Shown here one piece after another: positions 12,660-48,883 of a stretch of 64,000 nt of DNA. Position numbers and translations under genes: made by a program. The notes beneath the pieces are model-generated. The model was not told the origin of the DNA. It saw only the letters and a list, made by a program, of their open reading frames with translations, and made no database searches. The DNA is from a virus. Taxonomy: Duplodnaviria > Caudoviricetes. The first letter of the stretch is position 1; each line of letters opens with the position of its first letter. The DNA is taken from positions 96,001 to 160,000 of IMG/VR virus record IMGVR_UViG_3300048591_000242. One strand, written 5' to 3'.

Positions 12660-13667
12660 TTAATCCCATAATTCTTTAATTGTAAAATTTTTAACCGCCA
12701 ATGTACCCATGTGCTGCAGTCTTCGATACATTGAATCTCTGGTTATGTTTAATCTAGACATGATCTCCGAAAATTTAGACACACCAAATTCTTTAGTCTT
12801 ATTATCATACCAAAAAATAGGTCTATCATGATCTTTGTTTTTCATTAGCCTGCTCGCCGCTACAACATCCTCTCTCGATGGTAAGTCATCTTTGTGAATT
12901 AAAAAAGTATAATAATAAATTCCTCTAATCTCAGGCAAACCTCTAGAAAGATATGCTTTTATTCCTTTATATCCTGTAATATTTTCTGCTTCTCTTATAC
13001 TAGCGGCTATTATCTTTCCCCCAGTTAACCAATTATGAATCAGTATTCCAGTACGATAATTTCTTTCGCCATATATAAAATCATCCCACGGGCTATCATC
13101 TCCTGCATCCTTGATCAAATATCTTCCATAAATAACACCTTGAGAGTTTTTACGCAGCTCTGAGACTAATCTACTATGAAATGTACCTATAAATCTGGCC
13201 CCATCTGATAAAGAAGAGAAGTGTCTGGTTAAACCTGTCTTTACGTCCTTAATAAGAATAGGTCTTGCATAGTTTGAATTTTCTAATTCAGTACAAGAAT
13301 GCATGGTGTTTTCTCTTTGAGTACACCATTCCAGATTTTCAGGAGTATTGTTCGATCTATCTCCGTCTTTGTGATTTACATCTAACTTTCTTCCACAAGG
13401 AGGTGGTCCGTAGAAAGCAAACATAACTACACGATGAACTAAAACTGATTTACTTATTTTGTTTTTTTCACCGCAAAAGGTTTTAAACTGTCGGTAACCG
13501 TTAGAAAGTGTTCCGAAAGTCTTTTGACCCTTTTTCCTTATTTTATTTTCAGAAGTAGTTAGATAAACTATTTCGCCTCTTGAGGATACTGCCACTTCAG
13601 GATGTTTACTACTAAGGAAAAAACCGGGGAAATCTTTAGATTCTACAGGTTTGAATTTATTACTCAT
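12660..13667 (-). CDS. free-standing HNH homing endonuclease
   Basis: VHRVVM..F..NHKDGDRSNN...NLEWCT...N HNH core plus NUMOD1-like repeats; AT-rich; likely start ATG 13667 after GAGGT. Confidence 0.85.
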   Translation of the reverse strand: MSNKFKPVESKDFPGFFLSSKHPEVAVSSRGEIVYLTTSENKIRKKGQKTFGTLSNGYRQFKTFCGEKNKISKSVLVHRVVMFAFYGPPPCGRKLDVNHKDGDRSNNTPENLEWCTQRENTMHSCTELENSNYARPILIKDVKTGLTRHFSSLSDGARFIGTFHSRLVSELRKNSQGVIYGRYLIKDAGDDSPWDDFIYGERNYRTGILIHNWLTGGKIIAASIREAENITGYKGIKAYLSRGLPEIRGIYYYTFLIHKDDLPSREDVVAASRLMKNKDHDRPIFWYDNKTKEFGVSKFSEIMSRLNITRDSMYRRLQHMGTLAVKNFTIKELWD

Positions 13668-29403: not shown

Positions 29404-29715
29404 ATGGCTAGAAACTCAATTTCTATTTACGGCTGCGGTGGATTCGGCATCAACATCGTCCGTAACTTTGTGAATATTCCAGATGACCCGGAGCGGCAAC
29501 TGTATCCAAAAACAAGCATTCATGCCATTGACACCAGTGACAGTAATTTGGGCGCTTCACACAATGACATCAAGCACCATGTGGTGCCCGGAATCGACGG
29601 TGCCGGTAAAAACCGTAAACGTGCGTATGAAGCTACGCTGCCGCACATTGCTACAATACTTAACGATCATCGGCCGGGTATATTCAACGTCGTCATATTC
29701 TCAACATCAGGTGGT
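29404..29715 (+). CDS. phuZ: PhuZ phage tubulin, exon 1 (104 aa)
   Basis: GCGGFGINI, IDTSDSN, GAGKNR; ends FSTSGG in the tubulin signature loop. Confidence 0.9.
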
Positions 29716-29836
29716 AAAGTGATACATTAGTATCCATAGCCTGCTACAGCAGTGATGTTGTAGTAATCGTCTCCTAATTGCGGGAAACTCCTTCCTGTCC
29801 AATATTATGTTCACTAACATAACAAAGGTCAGGCAA

Positions 29837-30487
29837 ATGTCTAATTTTGAAACAAGAGTATGTTCGTATTGCAACAATGAGTATACGAATATTTATCGAG
29901 GACCACACGATGTGAAGGGATACACAATACCTACTTCATATTGTAGTAAATCATGCGCCGGAAAGGCGAAGGGTCCTATACTAGAAGATAGAGGTAAAGA
30001 AAACCTTAAGGCCGAAGCTTTGCAGTGCATTGAAGCGGCAGGTAGGTATCTCACTAAAGAAGAAATCTTAACTGAGGTTAAATGTTCTTCAAAAACACTT
30101 ACTAAACATGGTATTAAAATATCAGAACTAAATGCTGAATTAGGTTTCATTAAACCACGTTCAGTTTTTGAAGGTAAGGTGGGTAGGATACTTAAGGATA
30201 AATTTTCAAATGTAGAAAGTGAAAAAACATTTGAAGGTTTAACCGCACCAACAGGTTATCCCCTTAGGGTGGATTTTTATATACCCGAACTTAATCTAGT
30301 AGTTGAGGCCGACGGTTTACAACACTCCGATAAAAAACATCCATGGGCCACTCATCCCAATGGTACTGTCCGGGAATACGACGAAATCAAAAACAAATTC
30401 CTTCGTGATAATGAAATTGATCTTGTGCGTATTCCGTATAGTAAGAATGTTACTCCTGAAAGTGTTTTGGATAAATTAGATATTTGA
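29837..30487 (+). CDS. intron-encoded DUF559/Vsr-like (EDxHD-type) endonuclease
   Basis: FE..V..IL, LRVDFYIP..NLVVEADGLQH, YDEIKN..L..RIPY; N-terminal CxxC/CxxxC. Confidence 0.8.
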   Translation: MSNFETRVCSYCNNEYTNIYRGPHDVKGYTIPTSYCSKSCAGKAKGPILEDRGKENLKAEALQCIEAAGRYLTKEEILTEVKCSSKTLTKHGIKISELNAELGFIKPRSVFEGKVGRILKDKFSNVESEKTFEGLTAPTGYPLRVDFYIPELNLVVEADGLQHSDKKHPWATHPNGTVREYDEIKNKFLRDNEIDLVRIPYSKNVTPESVLDKLDI

Positions 30488-30709
30488 GAGCATTATATAC
30501 CAAGCTAATATCGAAAGATAAGTAGTGGCCTGACTAACTATCAGGGTATGGTAAAAATTATAATGATTGGACAATCCGCCGCGAAGCTTCTCTATGCTAA
30601 AGCAGTGAAGTGTGCTCAACGACTAACCCACTAACCAGGGTGTAGGGTACTAGTGTATCCGAAATGGAGACTGTCTTTAATCGACTAAAGTTTAATTATC
30701 AAAAATCTC

Positions 30710-31990
30710 GTGGGGGGATTTTTGATTCTGGAGGTGTTTATAGAAAAGTGGAAACTTGTAAAATTGGCACCAAATTATGAAATATCTAGCTGTGGAAAAG
30801 TTAGAAGAGTTAAAGATCACTACCATCTAAAAATTGGTATAGACAGATATGGTTATAATAAAATACATCTAATAAAAAATGATGGATCTAATTATTACAC
30901 AACCATACATCGTCTAGTGGCTATTGCTTTTGTAGATAATCCAAATAGATATACTCAAGTTAATCACAAGGATGGCAATAAAGCAAACAACCACTATACC
31001 AACCTGGAGTGGTGTGACGCAAAACACAACGTTATCCACTCGTATGTGAATGGATTAAACAACAACAGGCTACCCGTTATACTAAAAGATTTAAATACCG
31101 GCTATAAAAAATCTTTTATCTCAATAAAAGAAATGTGTAGATATTTAAATTTGAAACCAAATGTGGTTACTCCTTATATCAAAATATCCCACAAATACCC
31201 TTTTATGGGGAAATACGTAATTGAGGCCGATGAGACTGCTATAAAAGGTATATCTAATAGTAAATCACATGGTGTTGATTGTTATGTTTATGATCATGTC
31301 TCTTGCAAACTGACCAAATATCCAAGCATCAATATGGCTTCGTATTTTACAGGAATTAGAGGGCTATCTAATTTATCTAAATACAGTCCTATTAATGTTG
31401 CTGGATATACAGTAAGCAAAATAAGAGAAGAGTGCGTGTCTGATAAACACAAAATAAGTCTTACCTATGCATCTGAAAAGAGGGAAAAATATCACAGCGT
31501 TTCATACACCCAAAGATCAGACGAGGGATATGAGACATATGACTATTATACAGGAAAAACTGTATGGCACAAGGACAGAGACTGTGTTAGGGACTGGATA
31601 AACAAACACAGGGTCATATCCACCTTGCCCATAGAAAGCGATAACGTTAACGTAGCGGTATCTAGTTCTAAGAAAAATAGCAGAACATGTCTTCTTAGGG
31701 GCTATGGGGTAAGATCACTACTTCATGGTTTTGAATGGTTTCCTTATACGGAGGAAGTTATTTTATCAAACATGTATAATAGAAAATTCATTACTAAGTG
31801 TTTTAAGCTAAAAATGTGTGGCAAAACTGAAATAGTATTTGGCCTTCCGGCATTAGCTAAAATATTAAATGCGCCGCATGACATGCCTTTTAACAAAATG
31901 TCTGTTACGTATTTAAACTCGTTGCTAAACGCACCCCACGAAAGCGTAGAGCGACTTAATAACATAGTCGATTTAAAGATAAAGATATAG
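30710..31990 (+). CDS. intron-encoded NUMOD4/HNH homing endonuclease
   Basis: EKWK..NYEISSCGKV; IHRLVA.AF..VNHKDGNKANNH..NLEWC; stop codon overlaps intron P7. Confidence 0.9.
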   Translation: MGGFLILEVFIEKWKLVKLAPNYEISSCGKVRRVKDHYHLKIGIDRYGYNKIHLIKNDGSNYYTTIHRLVAIAFVDNPNRYTQVNHKDGNKANNHYTNLEWCDAKHNVIHSYVNGLNNNRLPVILKDLNTGYKKSFISIKEMCRYLNLKPNVVTPYIKISHKYPFMGKYVIEADETAIKGISNSKSHGVDCYVYDHVSCKLTKYPSINMASYFTGIRGLSNLSKYSPINVAGYTVSKIREECVSDKHKISLTYASEKREKYHSVSYTQRSDEGYETYDYYTGKTVWHKDRDCVRDWINKHRVISTLPIESDNVNVAVSSSKKNSRTCLLRGYGVRSLLHGFEWFPYTEEVILSNMYNRKFITKCFKLKMCGKTEIVFGLPALAKILNAPHDMPFNKMSVTYLNSLLNAPHESVERLNNIVDLKIKI

Positions 31991-32064
31991 TCTAGTCTGC
32001 ATGGAAACATGTAGCAGTTCATAAGAGAACGCGCACCATCTAACGAGTGGTGTGGAATATAACG

Positions 32065-32796
32065 AGTGGAAGTGTGTTGGGCCCGCTGATAGTAGCGGAG
32101 TTACTGCGTAGAGCTATCCCTGTCGTTGCGGTTATTGTGGGTTCCTCTGATTCCGCAAAAGAAGTAAACAACAGTCTAGATACGTTGTCTAGTTTACAGC
32201 AGATGTCGAACGGCGGCCATACTGGCGGTAGAGCTATTCCTATGGTTTATTTGGAAAATGCTCGCGCAGTGAAGGGTAATAAAGAAGACAAGATGGCGAG
32301 CCGCAGTGCTGTGGACAAGCAGGTTGAAGAAAATATTCGTCAACTGGCTTTACTGTTCTCTGGCATGCATCGTGAACTAGATAGAACTGATCTGGTAAAC
32401 TGGTTAGACCACAGTAAGGTTTCTCCTTCTATACCTGCCCAGTTACTGGAAGTCATTATTCACAAAGAAGACGACAGCAACATGCTGGAGGCTTATAGTG
32501 GTTTAGTGGTAGGGGTGGCTAGTTTATTGGCCAGTGAAGATGATCTTATTTCTGATCTAAATGCACCCTATGCCACTAAGGGGTATCTACAGGAAGAAGT
32601 TCTGGAATATGCTGATATTCCAAATCACACATACATTACTACAGCAGCTCGAGTACCAAAAATATTCGAGCGTTTTACCCAAGCTAAGCAGCTCCACCGA
32701 GATACCGTAGAGTCACTAAGCGGTATGGAAGTAGTAGGTGTTAATTCTGGATTTGGTACCTCCGGTATGTCCGGTGGAGACGGCATGGTAATTTAG
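32065..32796 (+). CDS. phuZ: PhuZ phage tubulin, exon 2 (243 aa)
   Basis: begins SGSVLGPL; LDRTDLVNW; C-terminal DGMVI tail; spliced product 347 aa. Confidence 0.9.
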   Translation, partial: SGSVLGPLIVAELLRRAIPVVAVIVGSSDSAKEVNNSLDTLSSLQQMSNGGHTGGRAIPMVYLENARAVKGNKEDKMASRSAVDKQVEENIRQLALLFSGMHRELDRTDLVNWLDHSKVSPSIPAQLLEVIIHKEDDSNMLEAYSGLVVGVASLLASEDDLISDLNAPYATKGYLQEEVLEYADIPNHTYITTAARVPKIFERFTQAKQLHRDTVESLSGMEVVGVNSGFGTSGMSGGDGMVI

Positions 32797-43946: not shown

Positions 43947-45860
43947 ATGGCTATTAAGAAAACAGGTGGAGAATCCGCAGAAGTGTCACAAGACAATGCT
44001 GGACCACAACAAGGATACACGTACCAACCACAATCTACAGGTGACGACCTGTTCTCTGGTATTGGTGTAGAGACTCTTTCTGGAGGCGTAGATACTGAAG
44101 GCTTCGCTGCGTTCAGTGCTGAGATGGAAAGACTATCTAAGTTACCTGAAGTACTCAGAACTATTAAGTTGAGTGTTATTCCGGTATCAAACCAACACCT
44201 TAGACTGCCGGTATTGGCCATGGCGGCTGAGTCTAAAGACGGGGTTGTGGTTTACAGCCTTCTTATTGAAGGCATGATGGGTCAGCCTTTGGAGCCTATT
44301 CGTGAAATCCGTCGTGATTTCGGTGGCCCACAGGGAGCTGAGATTATTATTGATCGTCCTACTAGTCGTTGCTATGACAACGGTTTGCGTAAGATCGTAG
44401 CGGCTGCGGTAGCTACGCAGTTAAATACCAGTGCTGAGCGTATCGTTCACCAGTCACATTGTGTTGTGCCACGTGGCGCTAACCTTAAGTGTGCTGAAAC
44501 CTGTCGCTCGTTCTTTGACAGCGCTAACCTAGCTCTGACAAACGCTGTAGCGCGCGATCGTATTGCCGGTGTTACCGTAGCTAACCTTACCAACCCAGCG
44601 GGTGTGGTAAATCAGCGTACTACTATTACACCTGGACAAAACAAGTTGAACAAAATCGGTTTGCCTATTGCGGCTGACTTTACAACCACTATTGAACTTG
44701 CTCGTAAGGCGCAAGAAAAGACCAGTTGGTCATCAGATATTCACGTTGCACAACAGCGTTACCATTTGGCAGAAGTAAGCGGTTACATTGATTTCTCAGT
44801 AGCTGGCCCAATTCCACCAAAACCAAACATGAATCCAATGCTGCCACAAACTGTACCTGGTTACATTCCTATGGTTGTAATTACAGAAATCGCTGGTTTG
44901 GCAAACAACGGTTCCTCTATTGAAGACATGCGCACGCAGTTACTGGGTATTGCTGCTACTACAGCGCTTACTGCAGATCACGGCTGGGTACGTGTATTTG
45001 AAAAGATGGCCGGTGCCAAATCCGTCAAGGCAGATATCGGTTTATTAGGTTTGGAACACGATCCGTATATCGGTCGTACACCAGAACTAGGTATGGTTAG
45101 CGTAGACAGCATTAGCTACGGTAAGCAGCCAAAAGAAGGCACAATGACTCCGAAGCAAGTAGCGGATTTGTGGTGTACTGATAAAGTAGCAGTAGCGCTG
45201 GATGTTGAACAGGGTGGCCGTTTGCACTGGATTCAGGATATCTTTGTAGCGGCCTCTGGTGTAGGTGATGAAACTGGTCGCCGTACCGCAGCTAACGAAC
45301 GTATCATTGCTGAGTGTGATGTTCTTACTAACGGTATTTTCTCACGTCTATGGACTGAGTTAAACGGTGGTCAGAAAGCACACGTGGTAGCTACTGAAAC
45401 TGTAGCAGTACATTTGGGTACGTATGATGGCGGTAAGAATGGCGGTCGCCGTGATCTTCGTTCTATCGACTATCTGACAATGCTAGGTCAAATGCCGAAA
45501 GATCTGGAAAAGCTAAGTGCAGCTACTGCCGCTACCATTCCTGGTGGCTGTAATGCTATTACACTTACTGATCGCAGAAACGCTATTGAAAACATTGTGG
45601 GCGATTGTGAATTCACCGGTATGGCTACACGCGTCTTCTTAACTGGTGGTTTCATCAATACTTTCGTACGTGCACTTATCCAGGCAGGTGTTACTTTCCG
45701 TTCTGACGATTTGTTAGGTTACGGTCAGTCTAGCCAGCGTGTGGTAATGAACTACAACTTGGCCGGTACTGCTTCTGAAGGTTTATATCAGACAGCATAT
45801 CAGCAGGGTTCAGTACCAGGCATCCCAGGCGGTGCTGGGTATATTAACCCATTGTTCTAG
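43947..45860 (+). CDS. chmA: chimallin, phage nuclear shell protein
   Basis: 637 aa directly upstream of the nvRNAP beta-prime-N gene; EVSGYIDF motif; disordered termini; strong codon bias. Confidence 0.8.
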   Translation: MAIKKTGGESAEVSQDNAGPQQGYTYQPQSTGDDLFSGIGVETLSGGVDTEGFAAFSAEMERLSKLPEVLRTIKLSVIPVSNQHLRLPVLAMAAESKDGVVVYSLLIEGMMGQPLEPIREIRRDFGGPQGAEIIIDRPTSRCYDNGLRKIVAAAVATQLNTSAERIVHQSHCVVPRGANLKCAETCRSFFDSANLALTNAVARDRIAGVTVANLTNPAGVVNQRTTITPGQNKLNKIGLPIAADFTTTIELARKAQEKTSWSSDIHVAQQRYHLAEVSGYIDFSVAGPIPPKPNMNPMLPQTVPGYIPMVVITEIAGLANNGSSIEDMRTQLLGIAATTALTADHGWVRVFEKMAGAKSVKADIGLLGLEHDPYIGRTPELGMVSVDSISYGKQPKEGTMTPKQVADLWCTDKVAVALDVEQGGRLHWIQDIFVAASGVGDETGRRTAANERIIAECDVLTNGIFSRLWTELNGGQKAHVVATETVAVHLGTYDGGKNGGRRDLRSIDYLTMLGQMPKDLEKLSAATAATIPGGCNAITLTDRRNAIENIVGDCEFTGMATRVFLTGGFINTFVRALIQAGVTFRSDDLLGYGQSSQRVVMNYNLAGTASEGLYQTAYQQGSVPGIPGGAGYINPLF

Positions 45861-45934: not shown

Positions 45935-47161
45935 ATGAGTAAAAACATCCGCGTACTGGATCACGATGAACATTTTAGAAGTTTAAATTTTCCACCGATT
46001 ATTCTAAACGATATACCGGCCAGAACTAAGGAGGAGAGAGAAGCACTAAATAACATCATAATGACCACGTACGACAACACAGATACTTTAGAGTCAGTAC
46101 CTAGCTGTGCGTGTGGGGCTCTGTCGTATGGGCATAACTTAGGGGCCATGTGTAGTAGCTGTGGTACCAGAGTAGAAACCCCTACAGACAGAAAAATAGA
46201 GGCTACCGTATGGATACGTTCTCCAGAAGGTATAGTTTCTTTAGTAAACCCAGTATTGTGGTTGGTGTTAGGGAAGATCTTAACAAAATCACACTACAAC
46301 GTTCTGTATTGGTTTTGTAACCCATATGCTGAAGATCCCCCACATAACAACAAGGCTGCTATTCAGTTAATACGCAGATTTTTAAACTCTGGCATACCTC
46401 GAGGATTAAATTCCTTTATAGTGAACTTCGATCAGTTAGTACCTATCTTTCTGGCCGCAGTACCACTAGCTTCTAACCGACCACATCTGGAATCTTTTAT
46501 TTCAGAAAATAAAGACAAGTTCTTTCCACAGCACCTACCAGTACCGTCTAAGGTAGCGTTTGTTCTGGAGAAAACTAGTACTGGCTCTTATGCCGATATT
46601 AACATAAGAGACCCTATTAACGCATGTCTTACTGTAACTTCACTGGACTCTGGTACCTTAAGTAACGTTAAGAGACTAGAAAGCAGAATGTCTTCTGTTA
46701 TCAATGATTTATCGAACTATTACAAACATATGTTTGGTGATCCGTTCTCAGCTAAGGCCGGTCTTCTTAGAAAGACTGTATTTGGCAGTAGGATGGGTTA
46801 TAGTTTTCGATGCGTTATAACCAGTGCTCACGGGGTACACGACTATGAGCAAATAAAGATACCTTATTCTCAAGCGGTAACTCTACTTAAGGCACACCTT
46901 CTAAACAAGCTACACAAGTTGGAGTATAACGAGAGAGATGCTAAGGCTTATATAGCCCAGCATACCAAGGAGAGAGATCCTCTGCTTCTTAGGCTCTTAT
47001 ATGAGCTTATAGCAGAAGCACCAGGGGGTAAAGGTATACGTTGTCTCTGGATTCGGTACCCTACTTTAACGAGGGGCAGTATACAGTCGCTTCATATCTC
47101 GGATATCTCCGAGATGTCAGCTAGTCTTAGTATATTGGCCCTAAACGGCGCTACGGCTGAT
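45935..47161 (+). CDS. nvRNAP beta-prime N-terminal subunit (phiKZ gp55-like), exon 1
   Basis: zinc ribbon CACG..CSSC, K.GLLRKTVFGSR, RYPTL; ends LNGATAD. Confidence 0.9.
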
Positions 47162-48673
47162 GAAGCGGCTTAACTAACGATACTTGAACAATTGTGTTTG
47201 CTAATGTACATTAATGCTCTATGTGTTCTTTAAATTAAATAAATATCATGGTGAGGATAAATGTATGTTAGTTGAAATTAAAGGTTTTCCTGGGTTCTAT
47301 AGGGCTGTTGGTACAACAAACCTGGCCGTAAATAAAAATGGAATCATTCTAGATTTAGTTACCCGTAAATACAAACTCACCGACGTTGCATCGGATGGGT
47401 ACATCACCACAAATGATGGCGGAGTAACTAGGAACGTTCATCGCATTATGGGTGATACATTCCTAAAACGTCCTAGCGGGAAGGGGACGTACATAATCAA
47501 CCATAAGGACGGAGATAAAACTAATCCTAGGTTAGATAATTTAGAATGGGTTACATATAGCGGTAACATAGAACATGCCTACGCTAATGGTCTAAGAACA
47601 GACAACACTCCGGTTGAAGTTTATAACTTGAAAACGGATGAAATTATAAAATTTATTAGTATACAGCAGTGTGCTAAGTATTTTAAACGTAACCATAACG
47701 CTATAGTTAAGTATCTTAAAAGCAAGCGTAATGCACCGTTTATGTTGTCGTACAGCATTAGAAAGGTAGGGGAAGGTTGGCCACCTCTTACCAAGAATGA
47801 TATTGGTAAAGTGGTAAATGGGGCACCCGTTAGCATAATAGCGGTTAATGTAAGTACCGGTGAAAAAATAATTTTCAGTGGTGCTAAAGCGGCGTCAGAA
47901 TATCTGGGTCTAAAGAAATCTGGAATAGGTGGTAACTTACGTGGCACACATGGCGATAAGCCGTACCACGGTTATAGATTTTACCATCTTAACACCTATA
48001 ATCTTGAGTCTACAGATAACGCAATTGATGTGCGTGATCCTCAATCAACTAAATCTAAAGGAAAACCACCTAGACAAAAGCCCAAAATGGTTAGTGCATT
48101 TAATCATGATACCGGTATTGAGGATGTGTTTAACTCCATGCGCGTATTTGCTGAGTCTGTAGGGACAACCTATGATGCAATAGCTAGATCGGTATGGAAA
48201 AACGCTGGTAGGTGGAAAAACTACACAATCAAGTATATAGGTTAAGCCGATAGTCCTCTAGGCTAGTAATGGTCTAGTAGTTTCTCTCTAATTGCTGGAA
48301 CCCACTAAAGATTCACCCACTACAACGTAACTGGAAACGGTAAGCGTGAAGGTATCGAAAGATAGAAAAAAGTGGTGAGTATGGAATATGACGATAGTAA
48401 GTCTAAGTTCTATAGACAATGTGGGAATCAGCAGCGAAGTTCCTAAGCTACTCTACCTTGGTAGAGGTGTATGGAATGTGCTCAACGATCAACCGGTAGC
48501 TCGGTGTAGGGTGGCAAGCGATGTAACAATCAGGCCATTCGAAATGGGAGGGGGCCTTTCATGTTTGTGTGAAAGGTTCATGATATGATCTAATATCCAT
48601 CTGTAATGGATGGGAAGTTCGCTACTTCGGTAGTGAGAACTGTATGGGTGTCGCGGCCCATATGAATGCAATG
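47162..48673 (+). mobile_element. group I intron in the nvRNAP catalytic motif
   Basis: GAU 5' junction, terminal G; CGGCTTAAC/GTTAAGCCG P1 stem around the HNH ORF; AATTGCTGGAA, AATCAGCAG, P7 GATCA/TGATC; P9 hairpins. Confidence 0.9.
47265..48245 (+). CDS. intron-encoded HNH homing endonuclease
   Basis: VHRIMG.TF..INHKDGDKTNPRLDNLEWV..SGN; NUMOD1-like repeats; GAGG SD before ATG 47265. Confidence 0.9.
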   Translation: MLVEIKGFPGFYRAVGTTNLAVNKNGIILDLVTRKYKLTDVASDGYITTNDGGVTRNVHRIMGDTFLKRPSGKGTYIINHKDGDKTNPRLDNLEWVTYSGNIEHAYANGLRTDNTPVEVYNLKTDEIIKFISIQQCAKYFKRNHNAIVKYLKSKRNAPFMLSYSIRKVGEGWPPLTKNDIGKVVNGAPVSIIAVNVSTGEKIIFSGAKAASEYLGLKKSGIGGNLRGTHGDKPYHGYRFYHLNTYNLESTDNAIDVRDPQSTKSKGKPPRQKPKMVSAFNHDTGIEDVFNSMRVFAESVGTTYDAIARSVWKNAGRWKNYTIKYIG

Positions 48674-48883
48674 TACGATGGTGATGTTCTCAGTGGCTGT
48701 ATAGCCCTTAGTAGGAAGCAATATGATGACTTTGAGTACTTCAGACCACACTACGGTATTCATTCCTTTGTTAAGTTAGGTGAGCTAAATGGAAACTGCA
48801 GTTTACCAGAAACCGACATCGGTGTGATTAACTCGTGGTTTGAGTATGAAGAAGATGAGTTAGGTATTGTAGCTGAACGATAG
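48674..48883 (+). CDS. nvRNAP beta-prime N-terminal subunit, exon 2
   Basis: begins YDGDVL, completing the DxDGD triad; spliced product 478 aa. Confidence 0.9.
   Translation, partial: YDGDVLSGCIALSRKQYDDFEYFRPHYGIHSFVKLGELNGNCSLPETDIGVINSWFEYEEDELGIVAER

Follow-up and report, generated by a model that had tools for sequence, protein, structure and literature searches.

We analyzed a window of 64,000 nucleotides (nt), i.e., positions 96,001 to 160,000 of the 202-kb IMG/VR virus record IMGVR_UViG_3300048591_000242, which has terminal repeats; in this window the tubulin gene phuZ is interrupted by a group I intron that holds two open reading frames (ORFs) for unrelated predicted endonucleases. 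The phuZ exons, the intron and its two ORFs are on the + strand. Exon 1 of phuZ (29404..29715; 104 codons, ending in ..FSTSGG) matches positions 1-101 of PHROG 4733 (tubulin PhuZ; E = 8e-29), and exon 2 (32065..32796; 243 codons, beginning with SGSVLGP...) matches positions 102-299 of the same family (E = 1.6e-34). The intron between them (29716..32064) comprises 2349 nt with one catalytic core, is preceded by U29715 and has G32064 as its last base. ORF1 (29837..30487) encodes a protein of 216 amino acids (aa) with a Cys4 zinc finger, a helical domain and a C-terminal Vsr-like (EDxHD-type) nuclease domain, while ORF2 (30722..31990), which starts with TTG, encodes 422 aa with NUMOD4, HNH_3 and NUMOD1 domains and a long C-terminal region.

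The reading frame of exon 1 continues for 4 codons into the intron and then meets a TAG (29728-30). Joining U29715 to A32065 restores the frame and yields a PhuZ protein of 347 aa; at the junction (..FSTSGG|SGSVLGP..), its alignment with homologues that are not interrupted (337-349 residues) shows no gap. The insertion site is in the GTP-binding signature (..STSGG|SGSVLGP..), i.e., in the most conserved codons of the phage tubulin gene. The locus thus shows the 5' exon U, the terminal intron G and the restored frame of a group I intron, with a weakly supported P1 pairing; the intron is of the self-splicing type, and GTP-dependent splicing of the phuZ transcript is predicted. A search of RNA data sets found none that contains the sequence. 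The closest PhuZ from a cultured phage is 38% identical, and a megablast search of the window against cultured phages found no match. Part of an open frame of 638 aa (window 44856-45797) matches the chimallin family (PF25677, 32 bits, above the cut-off), and the phage is therefore probably a nucleus-forming jumbo phage, and a very divergent one.

Searches with Rfam at the gathering threshold found nothing in the window, and a permissive search with RF00028 gave one match in 29600-32200 (36 bits), which was partial (J8/7, P7 and P9). This covariance model score is below the 50-bit cut-off because the two large inserts break the model; L015, a relative with one ORF, scores 61 bits. Since the Rfam match was only partial, the core was mapped through relatives. 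Positions 30487-30645 and 31978-32071 resembled many phage group I introns in a distant blastn search, and the ORF-less intron in the RNA polymerase (RNAP) gene of phage PhiPA3 (79 bits) and the primase intron of Vibrio phage JA-1, which has one HNH ORF, were used as references. Alignment of 8 related introns, with the ORFs removed, gave one consensus structure with many compensatory changes (8/9 pairs in P2, 5/6 in P3, 9/9 in P5b, 6/6 in P7.2, 4/5 in P8 and 7/7 in P9.2); P7 was assigned from the invariant words GACTA/TAGTC and not from pair counts. The core helices P3 to P9 as well as the J6/7, J8/7 and P7 consensus of group I introns could all be located via these relatives.

Starting from the 5' end, a P1-extension hairpin (GATAC 29721-25 / GTATC 29730-34) covaries among the phuZ introns (GGTATA/TATACC in L209 and ATGGCT/AGCCAT in L007, two metagenomic contigs described below). 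It is followed by a candidate guide sequence (GCC 29739-41), with which P1 would be drawn as GGU/GCC, and by P2 (29742-50 / 29757-65) and P3 (29769-74 / 30666-71). P4 (29779-84 / 30575-80) and the hairpin of P6 (30581-30615) were placed by alignment to relatives, which for P4 carried Rfam annotation. P5 was placed by homology (UCC 29789-91 / GGA 30569-71; it covaries with CCC/GGG in other members), and the P5a-P5c extension (30491-30565), in which P5a and P5b covary, corresponds by homology to the P5 extension of JA-1 and PhiPA3, which has no ORF. The 5' strand of P7 (GACTA 30621-25) follows J6/7 and pairs with TAGTC at 31988-92, and the P7.1 and P7.2 hairpins occupy 30626-61. P8 (30675-30687 / 31965-31978) has 13 bp with one bulged U; L007 has a P8 of 15 bp at the same place, different in sequence and equally complementary. 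J8/7 (AAGATATAG, from the RF00028 alignment) connects the 3' strands of P8 and P7, and is followed by the hairpins of P9 (31997-32014) and P9.1/P9.2 (32016-32056). The 3' end of the intron (31965-32064) has long identical runs in common with L007.

Neither RF00028 nor the alignment to relatives revealed a second P3, P4, P6, P7, P8 or P9 in 29716-32064. Outside the ORFs the intron is collinear with the single introns of PhiPA3 (294 nt) and L007 (~1.26 kb), and only ~45 nt of non-coding sequence are specific to the ORF1 block. A twintron or a micro-exon was rejected, as neither a second core nor an internal exon was found and the single core leaves no space for either. The first-pass annotation had described one set of core elements in a doubly invaded ribozyme rather than two introns; the single RF00028 match and the base-by-base alignment to ORF-less and one-ORF relatives agree with this description, and its coordinates, including those of the P8 stem, hold within 1-2 nt.

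ORF1 is located between the 5' strand of P5 and TGAGAGC, a conserved word upstream of P5a, and its stop codon (TGA) represents the first bases of this word. Domain searches with ORF1 gave a weak match to DUF559 and a strong match to a homing-endonuclease PHROG, while a sequence search against PDB gave no match. Its homologues (n = 97) are mostly 200-230 aa long, ~35-55% identical and nearly all aligned over most of the query. Because these homologues cover the 216-aa form, ATG 29837 is the start of ORF1, as had been proposed previously. An alternative start at ATG 29807 was rejected, as it is not preceded by a ribosome-binding site and the homologues fit the 216-aa form fully; a frameshifted single ORF was rejected as well. 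ORF1 retains all invariant residues of the family, including four cysteines (C9, C12, C36 and C40) and K185. Among 30 family members, D146, E157, D159 and H163 are invariant and D182 nearly so, and all five are present in ORF1; the composite EDxHD catalytic motif (Glu, Asp, His, Asp) is thus found, with its mapping to I-Bth0305I numbering taken from the fold match.

The AlphaFold2 model of ORF1 (predicted local distance difference test score of 91) shows a Vsr-type fold for residues 107-216, with matches to I-Bth0305I (3R3P; Z 9.2, root-mean-square deviation 2.8, 90/98 residues), the DUF559-type structure 3HRL (Z 9.0) and Vsr (1CW0; Z 8.9). These matches were obtained with an exhaustive aligner; Foldseek with the whole model gave weak and mixed matches only. 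As in the EDxHD family, the definition of which was taken from PMC3239194, ORF1 is intron-encoded in a phage and combines the Vsr fold with conserved acidic and His residues. ORF1 has no detectable sequence match to the PDB chain of I-Bth0305I, and Pfam found none of the N-terminal NUMOD modules of I-Bth0305I in it; the Cys4 zinc finger and helical domain take the place of these modules. The family member in contig L154 matches zf-FCS. Overall, ORF1 looks intact, and the modeled structure indicates that it is a Vsr-like, EDxHD-type endonuclease.

The AAGG ribosome-binding site of ORF1 is covered by a leader hairpin (CCTGTCC 29794-29800 / GGTCAGG 29827-33), and equivalent hairpins with different sequences precede every ORF1 relative examined (L015, L018, L021 and L154). 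The word ATATTATG is present at window positions 29803-29809, inside the ORF1 leader and just past P5. The first-pass annotation had drawn P5 as a pairing of TGTCCAAT (29796-29803) with ATTGGACA (30566-30573). This perfect 8-nt complement is real (P ~0.036 as compared to shuffled sequences), but homology assigns P5 to the short UCC/GGA helix; because TGTCC belongs to the conserved leader hairpin, the 8-bp helix represents a competing alternative and not the homologous P5. Predicted fold energies were -43.3 kcal/mol for the unconstrained fold with the leader hairpin and -41.5 kcal/mol with the 8-bp helix enforced, a gap of <3 kcal/mol. Homology thus favors the leader hairpin with a short P5, while thermodynamics does not decide between the two folds.

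ORF2 resembles I-HmuI (PDB 1U3E; E = 1e-14), its N-terminal 148 residues aligning with residues 2-157 of 1U3E, and shows the characteristics of I-HmuI-type enzymes, i.e., an HNH motif with the catalytic His and Asn plus NUMOD domains. Its HNH motif (NHKDGN..NN..NLEW..KHN) has an Asn preceding the His where I-HmuI has an Asp. The NHKDG variant is common to ORF2, L209 and two HNH paralogues in the same genome, and the Asn is therefore not a defect. One of these HNH paralogues (window 12957-13448, - strand) is 28% identical to ORF2 and has an open frame of 353 aa. The placement of the HNH ORF in the P8 loop with its stop codon in P7, already noted in the first reading of the sequence, was corroborated, as the 13-bp P8 encloses ORF2, the last 9 codons of ORF2 overlap the 3' strand of P8 and J8/7, and its TAG (31988-31990) represents the first three bases of TAGTC (31988-31992).

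The ATG that serves as start in I-HmuI, L007 and JA-1 is an ATA in the window (30740) and an ATC in L209, and the frame of ORF2 is open upstream of this position. TTG 30722 is conserved in L209 while GTG 30710 is out of frame there, and the 3 differences from L209 within the first 11 codons of ORF2 are all synonymous; the start of ORF2 is therefore most likely TTG 30722 and not GTG 30710. ORF2 looks intact, and the substitution pattern relative to L209 suggests that it is under purifying selection. As both ORFs are peripheral and their ends are built from core sequence (the first three bases of TGAGAGC for ORF1 and the TAG in P7 for ORF2), the ribozyme core is left intact.

The two ORFs differ sharply in their apparent history. 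The independent contig L209 (2.1 kb, from an aquaculture metagenome), which was recovered via the ORF1 protein cluster, carries the same double-ORF phuZ intron. Between the window and L209, exon 1 of phuZ shows 68% protein identity with saturated synonymous sites, the core from P5a to P8 is ~90% identical, and the intron outside the ORF1 cassette is ~10-15% diverged. The first 152 codons of ORF2 show 79% protein identity, with 0.86 synonymous (dS) and 0.13 nonsynonymous (dN) substitutions per site and a ratio of the two (omega) of 0.15. The ORF1 cassette (29792..30484), which consists of the leader hairpin and ORF1 and is absent from L007, JA-1 and PhiPA3 (its limits being those of the alignment), shows a very different picture, with 1 difference in 713 nt (29779-30491). 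Identity drops sharply 5 nt past the ORF1 stop and no more than 13 nt before the cassette. In L209 (1330-1968), ORF2 encodes only 212 aa, as 16 nt replace the 652 nt at window positions 31180-31831; this represents a net in-frame loss of 212 codons, which spares the nuclease part and the C-terminal 55 residues.

The same pattern was observed in an unrelated pair of introns (L154 and L151), in which the exons are 54% identical while the ORF1-family gene shows 2/624 mismatches and a LAGLIDADG gene 71/702. Three ages are thus visible in these comparisons: the host gene is the oldest, followed by the intron with its resident endonuclease and, as the youngest, the P5 cassette. In a segment comparison with L007, the P5 extension was the least similar part of the intron (0.17, as compared to 0.93 for P3-P4), and this low similarity fits a P5 module that was imported from a different lineage of introns.

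The first-pass annotation had suggested a search for relatives with zero or one ORF in the same intron, and such relatives exist: the PhiPA3 RNAP intron has no ORF, the L007 and JA-1 introns have an ORF in P8 only, and those of L015 and L018 have one in P5 only. Pattern-based locus searches of IMG/VR found nothing when the PhuZ exon 2 protein or ORF2 was the query, and with ORF1 only a free-standing relative with 39% identity (L006) appeared. The phuZ gene of L007, a metagenomic phage contig of 120 kb, is interrupted by an intron at the same site; its exon-2 product is 36% identical and begins with the same intron-tail residues. P3-P4, the hairpin before the P8 ORF and the 3' end of the L007 intron match the window; it has no ORF in P5, and its P8 ORF (243 aa) is decayed, without the HNH motif. 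The L015 intron, in the DnaB helicase gene of a chimallivirus, and the L018 intron, in an RNAP beta gene, each have an ORF1-family gene as their sole ORF; as in the window, this gene is preceded by GGGAA.CCC, TTCYTG and a leader hairpin, and its stop codon is the TGA of TGAGAGC.

In a wider sample of 19 full-length ORF1 relatives, the J6/7 and J8/7 motifs of group I introns were found downstream in 17 (J6/7 being 59-188 nt past the stop), and the 5' motif of P4 was found no more than 125 nt upstream of the start, also in 17. A motif-distance screen of 117 family members showed a short P5 of ~76 nt in most of them; a fuzzy version of this screen gave false positives (e.g., a J8/7 inside ORF2). 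Overall, members of the ORF1 family were found in this P5 slot in related introns that interrupt at least five different host genes.

Two further types of introns with two endonuclease genes were found. The intron in L151 to L154 (L154:4392-6130) combines an ORF1-family gene in P5 with a LAGLIDADG gene (Pfam E = 1e-26) located between P7 and the 3' strand of P3; its host gene is very large, with exons of 1431 and 1054 aa, and has no family match. In L152 and L153, a 1-nt gap shortens the LAGLIDADG frame to 162 aa. L021 (2470-4480), L141 and L142 contain a group I intron of ~2 kb in the RNAP beta-subunit gene (phrog_2986). An HNH gene of 292 aa (phrog_59) occupies its P1 loop and an ORF1-family gene its P5; only one RF00028 match was found at the L021 locus. 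The L021 intron belongs to a 189-kb phage present in many samples. The three double-endonuclease types share only the P5 occupant, the partner being an HNH gene in P8 (window and L209), a LAGLIDADG gene (L151-L154) or an HNH gene in P1 (L021, L141 and L142). Double-endonuclease introns therefore recur, with the P5 occupant as their common element.

Two other group I introns are present in the genome studied here, which therefore holds at least three. The first (window 47161-48674; RF00028, 41 bits) has an HNH paralogue of ORF2 (36% identical) upstream of its core and a P5 without an ORF. The second, outside the window (G000:C1:62545-62805, L001), has no ORF and scores 76 bits.

We consider that these data are best explained by one group I intron holding two selfish endonuclease genes of different age, which most likely have different targets, and we assign a probability of about 0.62 to this interpretation. 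ORF2 would represent the resident enzyme, which is tied to the phuZ site in three phages. By analogy with I-HmuI, ORF2 is predicted to nick one specific strand of intron-less phuZ near the insertion site, i.e., near the GG|SGS codons, and repair of this nick would copy the whole intron into phuZ. The comparative data suggest that ORF1 would cut the unoccupied P4-P5 DNA of such introns and that repair from a filled copy would insert the ORF1 cassette, which would make ORF1 a parasite of the intron. Two-endonuclease introns would then arise when a member of the ORF1 family superinfects an intron with a resident endonuclease. Within this intron family, members of the ORF1 family seem to enter P5 on their own and not together with the remaining intron. 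That the family is a specialized group I intron hyperparasite, with the DNA encoding the conserved P4-P5 of one ribozyme family as its homing site, is a narrower proposal to which we give roughly even odds.

Several observations weigh against this interpretation. Ordinary homologous recombination during co-infection could give a near-identical ORF1 cassette without any cutting by ORF1. Moreover, I-Bth0305I cuts the host gene beside the intron insertion site and not the intron (PMC3239194), whereas the target proposed here for ORF1 is the P5 DNA of the intron itself. As the ORF1-family gene is the sole endonuclease gene of the L015 and L018 introns, it may target the host gene there, and specificity may differ between members of the family. 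ORF2 has lost the ancestral ATG and starts with a weak TTG inside a hairpin, and its relatives are decaying (L209 and L007, as described above), so that ORF2 may be on its way out. P1 is only ~3 bp long as drawn. Finally, the L007 sequence has 100 N within the P2 region (L007:5798-5897), where an insert is possible; the flanks of this gap join in register with the window, and it is therefore probably an empty scaffold gap.

Alternatively, ORF1 and ORF2 could be redundant homing enzymes that both recognize intron-less phuZ near the insertion site, in line with the target reported for I-Bth0305I, and the near-identity of the cassettes would reflect recent ordinary recombination between co-infecting phages rather than an invasion driven by an endonuclease. 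Recombination is frequent in phages, and the conserved core flanking the cassette could provide crossover sites, but the identical tract ends close to the cassette (within ~13 nt upstream and 5 nt downstream), and the flanks share only ~20-30 nt. An exchange of this kind would also have to account for the repetition of the pattern in the unrelated L154/L151 pair and for the use of the same slot in at least five host genes, and the sequences flanking ORF1 (GGGAAACTCC / TGAGAGC) are unlike the phuZ junction (GGTGGT / AGTGGA). We thus consider redundant homing unlikely, although it is the strongest of the rival explanations.

A somewhat smaller probability is given to the possibility that one of the two genes is non-functional, which would leave effectively a one-endonuclease intron. 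ORF2 would be the likelier of the two, as an older, decaying resident in the course of replacement by ORF1; the change of its ancestral start codon to ATA or ATC, the position of the TTG within a hairpin and the large deletions in its relatives would fit the cycle in which homing endonuclease genes are known to be gained, to decay and to be lost (PMC3984707). However, the window copy is the most complete one (422 aa), is open throughout and keeps its HNH motif, and both the omega of 0.15 and the exclusively synonymous changes in the codons that follow the TTG argue against decay of this copy.

The first-pass annotation had also raised the idea of a cooperative two-nuclease weapon. Two nickases, for example, could jointly break the phuZ gene of a competitor and confer an advantage in mixed infection. 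A weapon of the PhiPA3 type would cut the intron-less allele of a co-infecting relative, reduce its fitness and depend on import into the phage nucleus. The setting for a weaponized endonuclease is present, i.e., a chimallin homologue together with an intron-borne HNH gene in a probably nucleus-forming phage, and the intron endonuclease of PhiPA3 has been reported to mediate interference competition (PMC12908238, PMC11878797). Both ORFs look intact and, since I-HmuI relatives and Vsr are nickases (PMC3239194), complementary nicking is conceivable. Conversely, I-Bth0305I makes a double-strand break alone, as a dimer (PMC3239194), the two genes have sharply different ages within the same intron (1 difference in 713 nt for the ORF1 cassette against a dS of 0.86 for ORF2), and the P5 occupant, with its slot reused across host genes, has three unrelated partners and also occurs alone, which would be unexpected for a co-adapted pair. 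The weapon is thus not supported as it was stated, and we regard it as improbable, slightly more so than a loss of function in one of the two genes; the evidence points to ORF1 as a second selfish gene homing into intron DNA and not as a partner of ORF2. Interference competition by ORF2 alone, by analogy with PhiPA3 (PMC12908238), is possible. The least credible alternative is a twintron or a pair of separate introns, in which a micro-exon or a second core would be hidden. A total length of 2.35 kb, which is large for a phage intron, speaks for it, but the single set of P3, P4, P6, P7, P8 and P9, the collinearity with single introns and the small non-coding part that only the ORF1 block has (~45 nt) make it extremely improbable.

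Taken as one intron with two selfish endonuclease genes, the phuZ locus resembles the I-HmuI-type phage introns (in the DNA polymerase genes of SPO1 and SP82 and the RNAP gene of PhiPA3) in that it interrupts a conserved codon block of an important gene and has an ORF in a peripheral loop, and its core is closely related to that of the ORF-less PhiPA3 RNAP intron. It differs from them in its host gene (phuZ), in the length of ORF2 (422 aa, with an extra C-terminal region and a TTG start) and in the presence of a second, unrelated endonuclease gene. Multi-ORF group I introns are known from fungal mitochondria, e.g., Podospora nad1-i4. Side-by-side twintrons have been described in Hypomyces (PMC4964425). 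These fungal loci likewise have more than one endonuclease-type ORF at one intron locus, but they are organellar, mostly encode LAGLIDADG or GIY-YIG proteins and often have a second core, whereas the introns described here are from phages and the phuZ intron combines a single core with an HNH and a Vsr-like gene. The reviews searched, on group I introns of bacteria and phages and on nucleus-forming phages, contained no mention of phage introns with two endonucleases; such introns recur here in at least three different combinations.

The closest parallel to the proposed entry of ORF1 into the peripheral part of an existing intron is I-TevII in sunY, where an endonuclease gene enters a peripheral part of the intron since the intron DNA holds its cleavage site (reviewed in PMC3984707). 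The acquisition of endonuclease genes by introns has mostly been argued from this one reconstruction experiment. While I-TevII/sunY represents the reconstruction of a one-off past event, filled and empty slots coexist in nature in the introns studied here, and the near-identical cassette in diverged introns together with the reuse of the slot across host genes suggests an ongoing, specialized process. As natural phage populations contain introns with this slot empty, with it filled, and with it filled alongside a second endonuclease gene, the invasion step becomes directly testable.

Three layers of selfish DNA are nested at the phuZ locus, where an endonuclease gene is contained in an intron and this intron in an important cytoskeletal gene of a probably nucleus-forming phage, and phuZ provides a second gene for testing the idea of a competition weapon in such phages. 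If ORF1 recognizes ribozyme-coding DNA, this would explain why one family is found at one structural position across many host genes and would represent a new, conserved target specificity with possible use as a tool. If the proposal of an intron hyperparasite is correct, the ORF1 family could hop between introns of unrelated genes and phages and create multi-nuclease introns in the process, and it would represent a natural, ongoing form of the long-hypothesized invasion of introns by endonuclease genes.

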